Assembly (NCBI GenBank): GCA_000004985.1
Contig: GG738892.1
DNA from: Naegleria gruberi
Taxonomy: Eukaryota
Reading direction: 5' to 3' (one strand)
DNA: 64,000 nt
Below are positions 6,262-32,284 of this stretch, piece after piece; within the stretch, counting starts at the first letter, position 1, and the number at the start of each line of letters is the position of its first letter. The position numbers were made by a program, and so were the translations under genes. The notes beneath the pieces are model-generated. The model ran no database searches. It was not told the DNA's origin and saw only the letters and a program-made list of their open reading frames with translations.

Positions 6262-7087
6262 TTATCCTTGAGCAACATCAGCAGCTGGTTCAGCAACTTC
6301 TTGTTCTCCAGCAACTTCAGCCATCTTGTGAGCAATCTGTTCAACAGCTTCCCAAACGAGGTGAGCTTCTTCTGGATTGGCTTCTTCATCATCAGATGGT
6401 TGTTGTTGTTGTTGGAGCAGTAACCTTGGTGACCTTGACCATCTTGTGAGCCATCTTTTCAACAGCAGACCAAGCTTGTTGAGCTGGGTTGACTGGAAGA
6501 GTAGCTTGCTTTGGAACAACAGTAGTAGCAGCAACAGTTTGTTGTTGTTGTTGTTGAGCTGGGGTAGCAATAGTAGTAGTCATAGCAACAGCTTCTTGTT
6601 TAGCAGCAGATGCAGATTGTTCCAATAAAGTCTTCATTTCTTCCAAAGCCTTCTTCATAACAGTTTGAACAACACCCTTGACTGGGAGGACAAACTTTGG
6701 TCCATTAGCTTGTTGTTCTTTAGCGAATTTTCTCATTAATTTTCTAACAAAACGAACGGAACGAGAGAATTTCTTTGACATCTTTAAAGAATCAACCCAG
6801 TTGGTGACTTCTTCAGTTCTTCCTTGTCCCTTCAAGATGAGTAAATAACGAACCATTCTAGCGAGATTAGTGATGGATTCATTCATTTCCTTCTTATCGA
6901 ATTGTCTTCTTTTAACGGAAGTGGACTTGATCAAATTCAATGACTTTAGATCAGTGAGTAAATTTCCTAAAAATACACTTGGTTGTGGTGTTTCTTCTTG
7001 TTGTTGGGCGAGAACAGATGAATGTGCTGACAACAACAAAACCATCATCAAGGTGGCAACGACAGCAAGTTTGACAAATGACTTCAT
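6262..7087 (-). CDS. Predicted secreted protein with an internal repeat. The reading frame breaks near 6392-6440, which could be an intron or a frameshift.
   Basis: The N-terminus MKSFVKLAVVATLMMVLLLSAHSSVLA is a signal peptide. The motif AWSAVEKMAHKMVKVT is repeated as VWEAVEQIAHKMAEVA in the overlapping downstream ORF 6262..6570 in another frame. There are Gln runs. Confidence 0.45.
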
Positions 7088-7320: not shown

Positions 7321-7382
7321 GGAAACATAGAGTAAAAAGCCAAAAATGGAGTCATAGGGAATCGAACCCTAGACCTTCTGCA

Positions 7383-7413
<31 letters not shown>

Positions 7414-7458
7414 AACCCCTACTATTTTGTTTTTTAAATATACTACTCCATTTGTTAG
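7321..7458. repeat. Copy 1 of a ~140-bp duplicated unit that carries the tRNA-Ala gene and its flanks.
   Basis: Near-identical to 9464..9598, including about 25 bp on the 3' side of the tRNA (aaa[c/t]atagagtaaa[a/t]agccaaaaa) and about 40 bp on the 5' side (tact[a/g]ttttgtt[t/a]tttaaa[a]tatactactccatttgtta). Confidence 0.85.
7347..7419 (-). tRNA. tRNA-Ala, anticodon UGC.
   Basis: The reverse complement reads GGGGTTATAGCTCAGTTGGTAGAGCGTCTGCTTTGCATGCAGAAGGTCTAGGGTTCGATTCCCTATGACTCCA. It has a cloverleaf with a G3:U70 wobble pair in the acceptor stem (the alanine identity element), anticodon loop CTTTGCATG and T-loop GGTTCGATTCC. It is followed immediately by a TTTTT Pol III terminator. Confidence 0.92.
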
Positions 7459-7607
7459 ATTACAATGAGCTCTGTCTCGCGTTATTGATCTAGTGTGTAC
7501 TAAAAACTTGATTATAATTTGAATAACATTGAACCTTCAAGCCAATTAGCATAAAAAATGAAACCATTTACACTTCATTCACAAGGTGGGTTTTTTCTCA
7601 TGACTAT

Positions 7608-8756
7608 TTGATTCCAATAAGAATGAAAGCAATATTTGCTGATGATATTTGTGTTGAAATATTTTCCTTCTTATCCGAAGATTGTAAATCGATGATGATT
7701 TATTCTCTTGTTTCAAATCAGTGGTTAACAATCATTCGAGAAAGGTCGAATATTTCTCTTTGCATCAACACAAGAAAAATGGTCAACCATGAATTGTTGA
7801 ATTATTTTACAAAGATAAAGTTTGCGCCATCAACATTTAATGACCTGGGATTTAACAAGATCAATACGAAACGATTAAAAGAGATTGAAATAATGTATAA
7901 TCGGCTTGGTGTTGAAGGAGCAAAATTGATTGGAAAATTGTCTCAGTTGACTATTTTAAATATCAGTAATAATCAGATTGGGGATTTAGGAGCTCAATCA
8001 ATAAGTGAATTGAAACTACTAAAGGAGCTTTTTGCTGATAACAATCAAATTGGCAATACAGGAGTCAGTTTTATAAGCCAATTGAAACAATTACTCAAAC
8101 TTTCACTGATGGGAAATTATTTTGACAATGAAGGTGTTTATTCAATTAGTAAAATGGACCAATTGACTGAACTGGATATAGGAACGAACAAAATCGATGA
8201 AAAAGGGGCTCAATATATTGGTGAAATGAAACAATTAAGGAAACTTTTCATTTCTGGAACTCAAATTGGTTCAGAAGGAGCTAAAGCCATCAGTGGATTA
8301 CCAAATTTGACCAATTTAAATATTGGATACAGTCAGATTGGGATTGAAGGTGCAAAATATGTTTGTGGAATGCATCAATTAACTCAACTTGGAATTGGAA
8401 ACAGCAGAATTGGAGTTGAAACAGCTAAACTAATTGGTCAATTGAAACATTTAACTTTTTTGGTGATTGAAGGTAATAATATAGGTGATGAGGGTGCAAA
8501 ATATATTAGTGAAGCTAAATTGAAGAAATTAGTAATTAGCAATGGAAGAATTGGTGGAGAAGGCGCTCAATATATTGCTAAATTACATCAATTAACTAAT
8601 CTTGACATTAGTTGTAATAATGTGGATACAGCAGGTGCTAGATCAATAAGTAAATTACCCAATTTGACAATACTCGATATAAGTGTCAATAAAATTGGAT
8701 CAGGAGGAGCAAGATTGATCAAAGGAATGACCCAATTGACCAAAGTCATTCAATAA
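7608..8756 (+). CDS. F-box / leucine-rich-repeat protein of the RNI-like type with 24-residue repeats. Single exon.
   Basis: The N-terminal ICVEIFSFLSEDCKSMMIYSLVSNQWLTII is F-box-like. It is followed by about 12 tandem 24-aa units of the form L..L.I..N.IGdeGAk.I..l.qLt. Confidence 0.7.
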   Translation: MIPIRMKAIFADDICVEIFSFLSEDCKSMMIYSLVSNQWLTIIRERSNISLCINTRKMVNHELLNYFTKIKFAPSTFNDLGFNKINTKRLKEIEIMYNRLGVEGAKLIGKLSQLTILNISNNQIGDLGAQSISELKLLKELFADNNQIGNTGVSFISQLKQLLKLSLMGNYFDNEGVYSISKMDQLTELDIGTNKIDEKGAQYIGEMKQLRKLFISGTQIGSEGAKAISGLPNLTNLNIGYSQIGIEGAKYVCGMHQLTQLGIGNSRIGVETAKLIGQLKHLTFLVIEGNNIGDEGAKYISEAKLKKLVISNGRIGGEGAQYIAKLHQLTNLDISCNNVDTAGARSISKLPNLTILDISVNKIGSGGARLIKGMTQLTKVIQ

Positions 8757-9074
8757 AACAAGAGCATATGTAATTGGAAACTTTATTTATCAATATTGTT
8801 ATTCTCCATTTTCCGTTCAGTGGATTGGAAATCTTGCCATTGTGAATATAACAATGAATAAAAGCTAATTCGTATTTTTCGAAGTTATCTGTTCGGTTGT
8901 TGAATTCCCTTATTGGAAATAAGGGATTATTGGAGTTTTCAATTGCGTAAGCACAATCAATCGCTCAAAAACATTCACAACCAACGCACATTTCGAACAA
9001 CATAAACACAGTTCTACCAGAACATGTTTCTGTTTCAAATAGCATCAAAAAAATTGTTGGAAAATCATTGAAGA

Positions 9075-9398
9075 ATGTCCCAAAGAAACTATCAACTTAG
9101 AACTTACACTCTCAAAACTAAAGAAAGTGCATTACAATACAGAGATATTTGGTATGATCATGTTGAAAGTTTGAAAGTGGTTGGAATTCAAACTCATGGA
9201 ATTTTCATTCCTGTTGATTGTGAGGAGCAAGTGATTGCCTTGGTTAGTTACAATACTGATAAAACAGTTGAGGAATATACATTGGAATATATGAATAGTG
9301 AAGGATTTAAGAAAGATGTCAAGGATTTTGATATTTCAAATCTTGTCAAAGTTGAAACAAGAGAAATGACAGCTATTAAAGGATCTCCATTGCAATAA
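9075..9398 (+). CDS. Small protein, possibly a NIPSNAP/Dabb-like dimeric alpha+beta barrel.
   Basis: The N-terminal NYQLRTYTLKTKESALQYRDIWYDHVE resembles the NIPSNAP Y-E-L-R-T-Y-x-L-K motif. The protein is 107 aa. This is a weak call. Confidence 0.35.
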   Translation: MSQRNYQLRTYTLKTKESALQYRDIWYDHVESLKVVGIQTHGIFIPVDCEEQVIALVSYNTDKTVEEYTLEYMNSEGFKKDVKDFDISNLVKVETREMTAIKGSPLQ

Positions 9399-9463
9399 AA
9401 AAGAAATGACAACCAGATAACATCCAAATGTGTTAATAAACTTTGCTCAATTGAAAAGTGAAT

Positions 9464-9523
9464 GGAAATAGAGTAAATAGCCAAAAATGGAGTCATAGGG
9501 AATCGAACCCTAGACCTTCTGCA

Positions 9524-9554
<31 letters not shown>

Positions 9555-9598
9555 AACCCCTACTGTTTTGTTATTTAAAATATACTACTCCATTTGTT
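9464..9598. repeat. Copy 2 of the ~140-bp duplicated tRNA-Ala unit.
   Basis: See copy 1. It is in direct orientation, 2.1 kb downstream. Confidence 0.85.
9488..9560 (-). tRNA. tRNA-Ala, anticodon UGC. Second copy, with identical mature sequence.
   Basis: The same 73-nt sequence as 7347..7419, followed by the TTTTT terminator. Confidence 0.92.
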
Positions 9599-9867
9599 AT
9601 TGGAGGTGAATAACTATGTCAAACTAAATCCACCTTTTTAGATTCTCCTCAATCATAGTACAACTTTGTAACAACAGTTTCGTTATGTTTCAAACTTAGA
9701 ATTGATTCAATTTCACATTAAAATAAATATCACGATTCAAATTCAAAACTCAACATGAACGTTCAATTTCAAATTCAACTTTTAACTGACACAACGCTAG
9801 CAAATTTGTTAAAATCAACTCGAAAAAAATAACTCTACCGACCATCAACACCAATCAACACACAAAA

Positions 9868-11337
9868 ATGAAATCTTTCAAAGGCTACGAGAGAGTTTGG
9901 TATCCTCCGATGAATGAAGAAAGTTCTCTGAATTATTCTTCTTCAAATCAACATGAAAAATTCCCATTTTCTTTAATATCCTATAATATTCTTGCTCAGG
10001 CACTTTGTAATAGACAGGGATCACAGAAATACTTGACCAAGTCACAAGCAAGGTGGAATATTAGAAGAAATAATTTATTGAATGAAATTTCGCATTATAA
10101 TTCCGATTTGATTTCATTACAGGAATGTGATTTTTATGATAGTTTTTGGAAATCAGAATTGGAAAGATTGGGATATGAAACATTGTATAGTCAACAATTT
10201 AATTGTGAAAAGAATTATCAACCAATGCCATATGGATTATTGACAGCTTTCAAAAAGGACAAATTTAAATTATTGGAATTTGTTGTTTTGGATTATCAGA
10301 AGGAAGCTTTAAAAGATGTCAATATTACTGATATTGAAATTTACGAAGCCAAGCTGAGTGGAAATATTGCTCTCATTAGTGTACTATCACCGATTGACCA
10401 TCCTGAGAAGGTTCTTATCCTTTCTAATACTCATCTCTATTGGAGACCAGCATGCAATTCAGTTCGTGTCAGACAAGCACTCATTCTCATGCAAACAGTT
10501 CAGAAACTGAAAGAAACCTATGATAGCCAATCGTCGTACGAATCGGTTGAGTATGTCTGTACCGGGGACTATAACACTTCTCCGAATGATCCACCCTATA
10601 TTCTCCTAACAACAAGGAACCCCTCAAATAATGAACCTTTCAAGGGCGATTACAATGCTGTAAAATTGTGGGAGGTTATCAATAATGGAACAGATGACGA
10701 ATTTATTAAGGAATTTCCTCTTGTGTTTGTTGAGGAAATCAAGTTGGTTTTGGAATCCAAGTTACAAATGGAGTCGTCATTACAACTAACCTCAAATAGT
10801 ATAACTGTGGCTGATCCATTAAACGGCCAAGATTGCACGTCAATAGACACTGTATCTCGAGAATCAACAGAGGAATGCAACCAGGGTATTAAGGATACTG
10901 TTGTTTCCCAAGAGGAGGTTGAGAGAATTTTCAAAGAGCAATACCAGCAACGAATCAGAAACATTAAGCAGTGTATTCATCAATTTTCTTTATCTCTCCC
11001 TATTATTTCCCTTTATACATTCTATAATAGTCACTGTGACAAGGAAGAAGATATTAAGGCCATGAAGGTACACGAAAGGTGGAGCAATAATGACTTACCC
11101 TATACCACATATACGCCTCATTATATTTCCACTCTGGATTATGTATTTGTTAGTGAAAATTCCACACTTTCATTAACACATCTCTTATCTGTTCCGACAC
11201 CTCAACAAATTCAAGAGGAACACTCACAACTAACTCAATTGTTGGAAGAGAAGGATTCTGGAGATAGTCTCGTTTGGATTCCAAACGATATTCACTCATC
11301 TGATCACTTTAGTTTGGGAGTAAGGATGTCCCAATAA
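9868..11337 (+). CDS. Endonuclease/exonuclease/phosphatase (EEP) family protein, CCR4/nocturnin/angel-like putative deadenylase.
   Basis: FSLISYNILAQAL...SLQECDFYDSFW...SNTHLYWRP...IPNDIHSSDHFSL are the conserved EEP catalytic blocks in the right order. It is a single 489-aa ORF. Confidence 0.65.
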   Translation: MKSFKGYERVWYPPMNEESSLNYSSSNQHEKFPFSLISYNILAQALCNRQGSQKYLTKSQARWNIRRNNLLNEISHYNSDLISLQECDFYDSFWKSELERLGYETLYSQQFNCEKNYQPMPYGLLTAFKKDKFKLLEFVVLDYQKEALKDVNITDIEIYEAKLSGNIALISVLSPIDHPEKVLILSNTHLYWRPACNSVRVRQALILMQTVQKLKETYDSQSSYESVEYVCTGDYNTSPNDPPYILLTTRNPSNNEPFKGDYNAVKLWEVINNGTDDEFIKEFPLVFVEEIKLVLESKLQMESSLQLTSNSITVADPLNGQDCTSIDTVSRESTEECNQGIKDTVVSQEEVERIFKEQYQQRIRNIKQCIHQFSLSLPIISLYTFYNSHCDKEEDIKAMKVHERWSNNDLPYTTYTPHYISTLDYVFVSENSTLSLTHLLSVPTPQQIQEEHSQLTQLLEEKDSGDSLVWIPNDIHSSDHFSLGVRMSQ

Positions 11338-29889: not shown

Positions 29890-32284
29890 ATGCTGTCATT
29901 GAAAACAAGCCAATCCGAAACTTTTTCTCCAACGTTGCCTCCTTCGGCTTCAGACTCCTCCTCCTTATCATCCATGTTGCCAGATATTGAAAACTGGAGT
30001 AATATGGATGTGAGTATGATTCTTGTCAATTCGGGAGAAGTTTGGGTGGTTAGGGATCAAAGTGAATGGACAAAGTTGATCAATGGAATACACGGTGAAG
30101 AAAAAAAGTGTTTGGTTGTATTGGATTCGAATGGAAAGTCTGTAAAGAAGGTGAGTGACAATTGATCAATATATTTAAAGGGTTTAATGTGTTTAGTTTG
30201 ATCAATCAACAATTAATTATTTGATTTGTAAAGGAAAGTTAGAAGATAAAGAAAATTCATCAAGTGAAGTAATGAGGGGATTGGAATTATTTAATGAATA
30301 TGTACAGTACTCTATCAGGAAATTTGAGAACTCGAGAATTAACTTGAACTCCAGATTGGAAACCCTTCAGAAAATGAATTTCAAAGAGAAATATCATAAC
30401 TTTAAATTGGAACAATCATTGAATGTTGATTTCTCAAAAATTGTTAATGAAATGCAGGAAAAGCTAAGGCTTGTAAGAGAAAAAACCAGACTGATTGTTG
30501 TGGAAATGAATTCTTTTCTAGCTCCAAACTTGAGAAAGTCTATTGATGGTTTATCAATTCAAGAGAGGATTGAGTACTTTGATAATCTTATCAATAATTT
30601 CACACAAATTAAGAAACTGTTCAAAAATCCATTTGACGACATGACAAAAAGATTGTTTGATGAATTATTGCTATTTGATGGGTTTGAACCTTATTATCGT
30701 CTTACATTACAAGAATGTTCTAGAATTAATAATGTAAAGAGAGAGCTTGAGAATTATTTACAACAAGCACGAGAAGAGGAACAGGAAAATCAAGCACAAT
30801 TCAAAGAATTCATAGGTATAGAGAAATTCAAGTATGTGCTAAAGATTGCTCCAAGTATTGTGGACTACATCTCAAACGAGACAAACTCCTCCATGGAGGA
30901 TGTAGTAGAAATGGCTTCTTCCATCCAATCTGTTACAAACATTCAAGGAGAAAACACACTTTATTCTTTAGAAGAAGAGGAAATGGATGAAGATCAACAA
31001 TTAAAAGACCAAGAAATACAAGATTTGAGATCACAAATTGAAGGTTTAAACAATCGAATTGCCGAATTGAACAACCAGGTTAATGGGTGTGATGTAAAGA
31101 ATAACTCATTAATTATTGGGAATGTTGAGTTTACTAAAATGTTTGAAAAAGAGATGCAAGACATGACAGACAAATTTAACAAAGAAATTGAATGTTTGAA
31201 AATGGAGAAGGAAGAAATCGAGAAAAATATGAAGGAGGAGAAGGAAAATATGTTACAACAACTTGAAATTGAGAAGCAACAACGCCAAGATTATGAAAAA
31301 CAGATCAAGGCATTACGTGATGATGTCGAATATTTGAAAAACGAGAAAAAGAATGAAAATAATAAGGCCAACAAAGAGATAACTGGATTGAATGAGCAAT
31401 TGAAAACTGAGAAAGAACAAATTTCCAAGTTAATGAAGCAACTATCCTTCCTTAAAGAAGAATCTGAAACAGAAGAGGCTAAATATAATGCAAATATTAA
31501 GGAACAAAAGGAAAAGTATCAAACATTGTTGACAGATCTAAACGAAATTCAGCAGAAGTTGGAGTCCAGCAAAGGAGAATGTACTGCTGTTAAATCTCAG
31601 TTGGAAGAAAATGCTGGAAAGTATTGTGAAAATATATCAAACCTTGAAGGTTTAATTGTAATGTTGAAGGATGAAATAAGGAATGATACACAAAACTATA
31701 ACGAATACCAGCAAAAATATTTTGACTCTAAAATTCTCTTGGAATCATTAGAAGTAAAACTATCTGAAAGGGTTGAAGAATTGAAAAAAGTGTATGATAT
31801 TAACAGTAATTTAGAATACCAATTAGGAGAAAGTAACCACGAAAAGGAGAAATTAATGGAAGATTTCAAAATATTACAGGATCAATTAGATATGAAACTC
31901 AGCATGTGTGTGGCAGAAAATTTAAATCTGGAAGAAAAGCTTAAAAATTTGGAAAATGAAAAGGAGCAATTATTGATAAGCTCATTTGTGGATCCACCAA
32001 ATCAAACAGATGCTTCTAATGACAAACAAAAAAGACTTTTAGAGAGTTTGGCGAATCAACTTCAATTAATATCTTTTTCCTTGGCAAGTGTTATTCAAGA
32101 TAGAGCAAGATGGATTGATAATGTTCTTGAAATACTAACAAATCTTATTACTGGTGAAATTGACAATCTCGATGAAGACCAACTCAATGACATTGTGAGA
32201 GGACTATGTAATAGATGGCACTTTGCCAGAGATAAGAAACTCATTGATGAGAATGGTTCTGATGCTAGAGGAATAGGGCATTGA
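29890..32284 (+). CDS. Long coiled-coil protein of about 770 aa. Exon 1 is 29890..30150 and exon 2 is 30234..32284.
   Basis: There is a gtgagt donor after ..SVKK. The 687-aa second exon is dominated by heptad-like E/K/L/Q repeats such as LKMEKEEIEKNMKEEKENMLQQLEIEKQQRQDYEKQIKALRDD. Confidence 0.5.

Follow-up and report, generated by a model that had tools for sequence, protein, structure and literature searches.

A tRNA-Ala(UGC) transcription unit of Naegleria gruberi, probably duplicated locally as a whole

The stretch of Naegleria gruberi nuclear DNA analysed here, 64,000 nucleotides of contig GG738892.1 (hereafter the window), has a GC content of about 33% and contains exactly two tRNA genes, as found with ARAGORN and with Rfam family RF00005. 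Both are tRNA-Ala(UGC) genes on the minus strand, they lie 2.1 kb apart, and each scores 72.2 bits against the Rfam model, for which the gathering score is 29. The two genes, copies A and B, are identical at 73 of 73 nucleotides, and their similarity continues into the DNA on either side. We consider it probable that A and B descend as paralogues from a single complete RNA polymerase III (Pol III) unit and represent a fairly young local duplicate. The two units were compared with their counterparts in strain E, a Naegleria strain present in the ENA metagenome ERZ929261 and about 98% identical to the window. The parts of the two units are listed here by their positions in the window, with flanks numbered outward from the gene in the sense of the tRNA.

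7327-7346, minus strand: 3' flank of copy A, made of T5 (7342-7346), GGC, a second T5 run and ACTCTAT
7347-7419, minus strand: tRNA-Ala(UGC) copy A, found by ARAGORN and Rfam; the strain E counterpart is identical (contig L008, 998-1070)
7420-7457, minus strand: 5' flank of copy A (-1 to -38), TAACAAATGGAGTAGTATATTTAAAAAACAAAATAGTA
9468-9487, minus strand: 3' flank of copy B, made of T5 (9483-9487) followed by GGCTATTTACTCTAT; identical in strain E (contig L001)
9488-9560, minus strand: tRNA-Ala(UGC) copy B, found by ARAGORN and Rfam; the strain E counterpart has one variable-loop change, U47C
9561-9599, minus strand: 5' flank of copy B (-1 to -39), TAACAAATGGAGTAGTATATTTTAAATAACAAAACAGTA

In both copies the acceptor stem pairs the 5' strand GGGGTTA with TGACTCC, giving a G3:U70 pair (G3:T70 in the DNA), and is followed by A73. 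The A box, TAGCTCAGTTGG, and the B box, GGTTCGATTCC, both lie inside the gene and are canonical as read from the sequence, and a T5 run begins at +1 in each copy (plus-strand 7342-7346 and 9483-9487). From these sequence features both copies are predicted to be functional genes. A preliminary description of this DNA had reported two identical 73-nt tRNA-Ala genes in the same orientation, with a G3:U70 pair and oligo-T terminators, and on this ARAGORN, Rfam and direct reading of the sequence agree.

The repeat extends from 7327 to 7457 and from 9468 to 9599 (131/132 bp) with 97% identity. On the 5' side the two copies share 38 nt, which differ by two substitutions and one one-base indel; on the 3' side they share 20 nt with a single substitution, and weaker similarity reaches about +27, or about 7320 at copy A. 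Position +10 of the 3' flank is T in copy A and A in copy B, and the same difference is found in strain E. The 5' flank of copy A is AT-rich and has a TATA-like tract at about -23 to -11; the distal, non-TATA part of the 5' flank (TAACAAATGGAGTAGTATA) is identical between A and B at 19 of 19 positions. Within the window, the 22 nt of the distal 5' flank occur in units A and B only, where shuffled sequences give a chance expectation of 0, and the same is true of the 20-nt 3' flank, with a chance expectation of 0.05. The earlier claim that conservation goes beyond the tRNA is therefore borne out by the measured flanks, 38 nt on the 5' side and 20-27 nt on the 3' side.

Homology ends sharply at both edges of the unit. 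Identity is lost there in a MAFFT alignment, and a blastn comparison with word size 7 of the 400 bp on either side returned chance-level matches only. As nothing similar lies outside the units, the 2.1-kb block between them is not itself duplicated, so that the duplication proposed in the preliminary description stands for the tRNA unit of about 135 bp and falls for the 2.1-kb segment. Furthermore, the shared DNA runs from -38 to at least +20, that is, past T5 and upstream of any plausible Pol III start, which argues for a copy made at the DNA level and not for a copy like those of short interspersed nuclear elements (SINEs). A 5-bp hairpin, CTCCAATAACAAATGGAG, is present at copy B only (9588-9605, minus strand), where unique upstream DNA meets the unit; it arises from a CTCC that chances to precede the unit, and is probably fortuitous.

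Strain E covers the locus in three contigs. Contig L008, which was reached through the 90% cluster of a neighbouring 231-aa protein, carries the gene for that protein, copy A and the N-terminus of a leucine-rich repeat (LRR) protein; L001 carries the C-terminus of the LRR protein, a NIPSNAP-like gene and copy B; and L009, which overlaps L001, joins the 5' side of copy B to a gene for a CCR4-like protein. Strain E thus keeps both tRNA copies and the intervening genes at the positions that they have in the window, and no excision or amplification variant of the locus was seen in these three contigs. This bears on the earlier proposal that the copies are a substrate for recombination: as direct repeats of 131 bp they could serve as one in principle, but no variant of the kind that such recombination would leave was seen in strain E.

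The tRNA body is identical in both copies of the window and in copy A of strain E, and copy B of strain E departs from it by U47C alone, so that the bodies show 0 (A) and 1 (B) changes between strains. Two flank positions have states that are specific to each copy and common to both strains, namely +10 (T in A, A in B) and about -13 (A in A, T in B). These shared states indicate that the split between A and B predates the split between the strains, and that the sites concerned have not been homogenised since then. The unit as a whole is accordingly not one that has been homogenised wholesale since the strain split.

Divergence of the flanks was measured against intergenic DNA, where 26 events separate the two strains over 777 nt (3.3%). 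Of the two 5' flanks, that of copy A has 5 events over its 38 nt (13%; P=0.0098 against this baseline) and that of copy B 8 events over 39 nt (21%; P=6.6e-5), so that the 5' flanks of both copies diverge between strains at 4-6 times the intergenic level and are the fastest-changing sequence in the region. The 3' flanks show no elevated divergence. In strain E the 5' flank of copy B has an 11-nt gap as well as substitutions, and its distal motif is gone; orthology resumes further upstream. Upstream of copy B the strains also differ in a second cluster of changes, at about -57 to -75. The pattern of the 5' flanks appears to fit transcription-associated mutagenesis, as judged from the analysis of these two loci.

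On the reading that we favour, a segment of about 135-140 bp would have been copied, as DNA, into a site 2.1 kb from the first, most likely by a repair- or recombination-mediated patch duplication, a step that we infer. Each unit would comprise an AT-rich upstream region, the internal A and B boxes, and the T5 terminator with a short tail, and the identity of the flanks would be shared ancestry that has not yet decayed. The duplication would be older than the strain split and, by flank divergence, of an age of the same order. After that split the tRNA bodies would have been held constant by purifying selection, with the 5' flanks mutating several times faster than intergenic DNA. The LRR and NIPSNAP-like genes would merely happen to lie between the donor and acceptor sites, and the outcome would be one extra dose of a tRNA-Ala(UGC) gene in a genome already very rich in tRNA genes (tDNAs).

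Several points weigh against this account. The mechanism of the patch duplication is itself an inference, and either copy could be the parent. The count of unit copies covers the 64-kb window and about 53 kb of other Naegleria DNA. The strain E assembly is fragmented: the linkage of its three contigs is deduced from their collinearity with the window, and a gap of about 140 nt separates L008 from L001. Finally, the 5' flanks of A and B in the window differ from each other by 3 events, as against 5 events between the A copies and 8 between the B copies of the two strains. A strict clock with no conversion does not predict this pattern, and some homogenisation or a lineage-specific acceleration may also be involved.

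This last observation is the starting point for another history, in which an old duplication was followed by recent gene conversion between A and B, with a tract running from the tRNA into the 5' flank, and this conversion is the main source of the flank identity that the reference strain now shows. The 5' flank of copy B in the window is indeed nearest to that of copy A in the window (3 events); it differs from that of copy A in strain E by 5 substitutions and 2 indels over 43 columns, and its own orthologue in strain E, copy B, is distant from it, at 8-11 events. When the paralogues are used as outgroups, about 12 of the changes after the split fall on the strain E lineage and no more than 3 on the other, an asymmetry that would vanish if the copies in the window had been homogenised. 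Schizosaccharomyces pombe provides the classic case of concerted evolution by intergenic conversion in its serine tRNA suppressor genes. As in those genes, the paralogues here are identical, and 5' flank similarity is greater within the genome than between the orthologues of the two strains. Unlike them, the pair described here keeps copy-specific flank differences in both strains, at +10 and about -13, which have escaped homogenisation since the split, so that recent conversion is a possibility only. Moreover, the one stretch on which conversion would have had to act, -21 to -39, forms the outer margin of the homology block, and nothing homologous lies upstream in which a tract could be resolved. 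The 5' flank of copy B in strain E still aligns with the unit to about -26, with about 17 of 26 matches in our own ungapped count, which suggests a decayed version of the unit with an 11-nt deletion rather than an ancestral flank of unrelated sequence. Concerted evolution has been described for tRNA families (PMC4981973), and the counts behind this question are all small; on balance we regard conversion as an unlikely main source of the flank identity. A role of the flanks as Pol III control elements, kept alike by selection on an upstream TATA-like element and a downstream terminator or backup, seems very unlikely to us. Some eukaryotes do use upstream TATA-like elements at tRNA genes, the 5' flank has its AT-rich, TATA-like tract at about -23 to -11, and the 3' flank opens with T5 and in copy A has a second T5. 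Against this, the supposedly constrained 5' flanks are the fastest-changing sequences between strains (13% and 21% of events against 3.3% in the background), and in strain E copy B has lost the distal motif but still has a tRNA that is intact except for the one variable-loop change; taken together, the fast divergence and this orthologue make selection a poor explanation of the identity between A and B. A generic selection for AT-richness would not produce 19 of 19 identities in the distal part, and tRNA flanks are reported not to be under purifying selection in the organisms studied (PMC6130373). Literature searches returned no description of a tRNA-linked repeat or of a Pol III upstream element in Naegleria.

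The preliminary description had also raised a SINE-like or retroelement-associated origin, and this we judge extremely improbable in each of its forms, whether the unit of about 140 bp is taken as a tRNA-derived SINE-like retroposon, as the footprint of a tRNA-targeting retroelement, or as a repeat produced when a small element that bore the LRR and NIPSNAP-like genes integrated at a tRNA gene. Such an origin would account for the sharp edges of the unit, for a layout of direct repeat, 2-kb insert and direct repeat, and for the absence of the LRR open reading frame (ORF) from the reference protein set; a 6-nt ATTCAC, which stands both 8 nt before the 5' edge of unit B and immediately at its 3' edge, might even be read as a target-site duplication, for which it is the only candidate. 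The ATTCAC is, however, offset from the edge and has no counterpart at unit A, a 6-nt match in short AT-rich windows is judged unremarkable, and no convincing target-site duplication was found around units A and B. The units have no A-rich or simple-repeat tail (they end in ...ACTCTAT(G)TTTCC), and the ORF list and Pfam gave no ORF for a reverse transcriptase, an integrase or a transposase in the block or next to it. tRNA-derived SINEs and tRNA-targeted retrotransposons, of which Dictyostelium TRE and DGLT-A and yeast Ty3 are examples, resemble the present case in that a repeated sequence is tied to a tRNA gene. Here, in contrast, both copies are intact tRNA genes and share non-transcribed upstream DNA, and the homology takes in promoter-side DNA together with at least 15 nt past the T5 terminator, all of it foreign to a Pol III transcript. 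Against an integrated element, it is the complete tRNA with both flanks that is repeated and not the 3' tRNA core of an att site; the block is fixed in two strains, its NIPSNAP-like gene being 100% conserved; and the nearest paralogue of the LRR protein is just 37% identical, which indicates that the cassette was not recently copied. Neither the 64-kb window nor about 53 kb of non-redundant DNA from other Naegleria (loci L003-L006) contained a third copy or fragment of the unit. We likewise think it quite improbable that the unit belongs to a genome-wide family of 'tDNA cassettes' copied at the DNA level, with repeated copying behind the roughly 924 tDNAs of the genome; if that were true, direct repeats of such cassettes could shuffle or delete the genes between them, for example members of the large LRR family.

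Wider searches yielded two isolated matches, neither of which was retained. A 39-nt pattern from the 3' half of the tRNA had 0 matches in JGI metagenome contigs, and a 22-nt T-arm/acceptor pattern had a sole match, in contig Ga0066646_10038261 (L002), which is unrelated and has no flank similarity. That contig, AT-rich and eukaryote-like, has a tRNA-Gln(UUG) and a tRNA-Ala(UGC) 6 nt apart on the same strand (2150-2309), the latter 97% identical to the Naegleria gene. Among viral contigs the tRNA pattern had 0 matches, and a lone match to the 22-nt 5' flank motif (L007) fell in a phage-like ORF with no adjacent tRNA and no extension, and was taken as chance. A scan of prokaryote genomes gave 0 matches; a scan for bacterial-type promoters and terminators says nothing about a eukaryotic sequence.

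The ORFs in and around the block encode the LRR protein, the NIPSNAP-like protein, a CCR4-like exo/endonuclease-phosphatase and the 231-aa protein, which has no Pfam match. Two of these genes lie between the copies and outside the repeat.

7623-8756, plus strand: LRR gene, intronless, 377 aa from the ATG at 7623 (Pfam LRR_6, E=3e-38)
9075-9398, plus strand: NIPSNAP-like small gene, complete, 107 aa

The larger gene had been described as an F-box/LRR gene. Its LRR part is well supported by the LRR_6 match, and its F-box part is sub-threshold, the N-terminus matching Pfam F-box-like at E=0.0034 and 17.6 bits where the cut-off is 24.3. The exact 377-aa protein is absent from the protein collection searched, in which its best paralogue shows 37% identity, and the ORF appears to be unannotated in the reference, though its neighbours are annotated N. 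gruberi proteins: the V-ATPase a subunit, CCR4-like, 231-aa and NIPSNAP-like proteins of the window are all 100% identical to N. gruberi proteins at NCBI, which come from a 342-kb scaffold. The ORF is also found in strain E, where a 2-nt deletion at codon 8 makes the ATG at about 7641 (MICVEIF...) the usable start. By our own count from the alignments, it has about 5 non-synonymous and about 2 synonymous changes between strains, which suggests weak constraint.

The small gene lies wholly between the two copies, and the earlier statement that the block holds just its start must be corrected. Its 107-aa product is the annotated protein XP_002673165 and matches Pfam NIPSNAP below threshold (E=4.4e-4; 20.8 bits, cut-off 22.3). 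Its coding sequence (324 nt) shows zero differences between strains, and so do the 188 nt sampled from the 231-aa gene (6900-7087, minus strand), in surroundings where intergenic DNA differs by about 3.3%.

No tRNA gene lies near the CCR4-like homologue in N. lovaniensis (L003), in N. fowleri (L004, L005) or in a Naegleria-like ENA contig (L006), and the neighbouring genes there differ from those of the window, which is consistent with fast turnover of tDNAs. With differing neighbours and no tRNA, L003-L006 are unusable as outgroups for the flanks. N. lovaniensis and N. fowleri (L004/L005) share a gene order around the CCR4-like gene, with translin, proteasome ATPase, a Zn-cluster protein and DNA polymerase epsilon B upstream and CDGSH, Vps54 and MTHFR downstream. 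N. gruberi (window 9868-11337) has none of this order, and the proteins are 34-40% identical. Elsewhere in the window, the draft assembly has a scaffold gap, written as N, at 578-1343; it accounts for the GC of 0.198 that the first 2 kb appear to have and for spurious overlapping ORFs at 140-1469; and positions 30001-32000 have a strong GC skew of +0.28 and an AT skew of +0.22, over an ORF at 30221-32284.

The proposed duplication is in keeping with what is described for tDNAs more generally. A comparative survey counted 924 tDNAs in N. gruberi, about ten times the kinetoplastid number, and concluded that the turnover of tDNA positions is about as fast as that of unconstrained sequence (Bermudez-Santana et al. 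2010, PMC2888827). tRNA genes give rise to further copies both locally and elsewhere, and many of these are recent (Velandia-Huerto et al. 2016, PMC4981973). The pair described here resembles the local tDNA duplicates of these two studies in having identical genes for the same isoacceptor, in the same orientation and a few kb apart, with an invariant tRNA body and decaying flanks in an expanded tDNA complement. Nothing essential differs, and the copied piece, 131-140 bp long and sharp-edged, is here unusually easy to delimit and can be dated against the strain split. tRNA flanks have also been found to be hypermutable and free of purifying selection, with invariant tRNA bodies, and this was attributed to transcription-associated mutagenesis (Thornlow et al. 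2018, PMC6130373). Our data share with that pattern a conserved body and 5' flanks at 4-6 times the background. They differ from it in that the published work concerns animals, yeast and plants, and the present case two loci of a heterolobosean amoeba, known from sequence only, whose 3' flanks are not elevated.

Together, the evidence presents the pair as ordinary growth of the tRNA gene family and not as a mobile element. For annotation, this means that flank identity of this kind is not to be taken as a mobile element or as a regulatory motif. The behaviour of the 5' flanks would extend the pattern of transcription-associated mutagenesis to a heterolobosean amoeba, on two loci only. The pair carries little weight as a discovery, and offers a clean, datable case in which a tRNA family has grown by the copying of a small patch of DNA that holds a whole Pol III unit.

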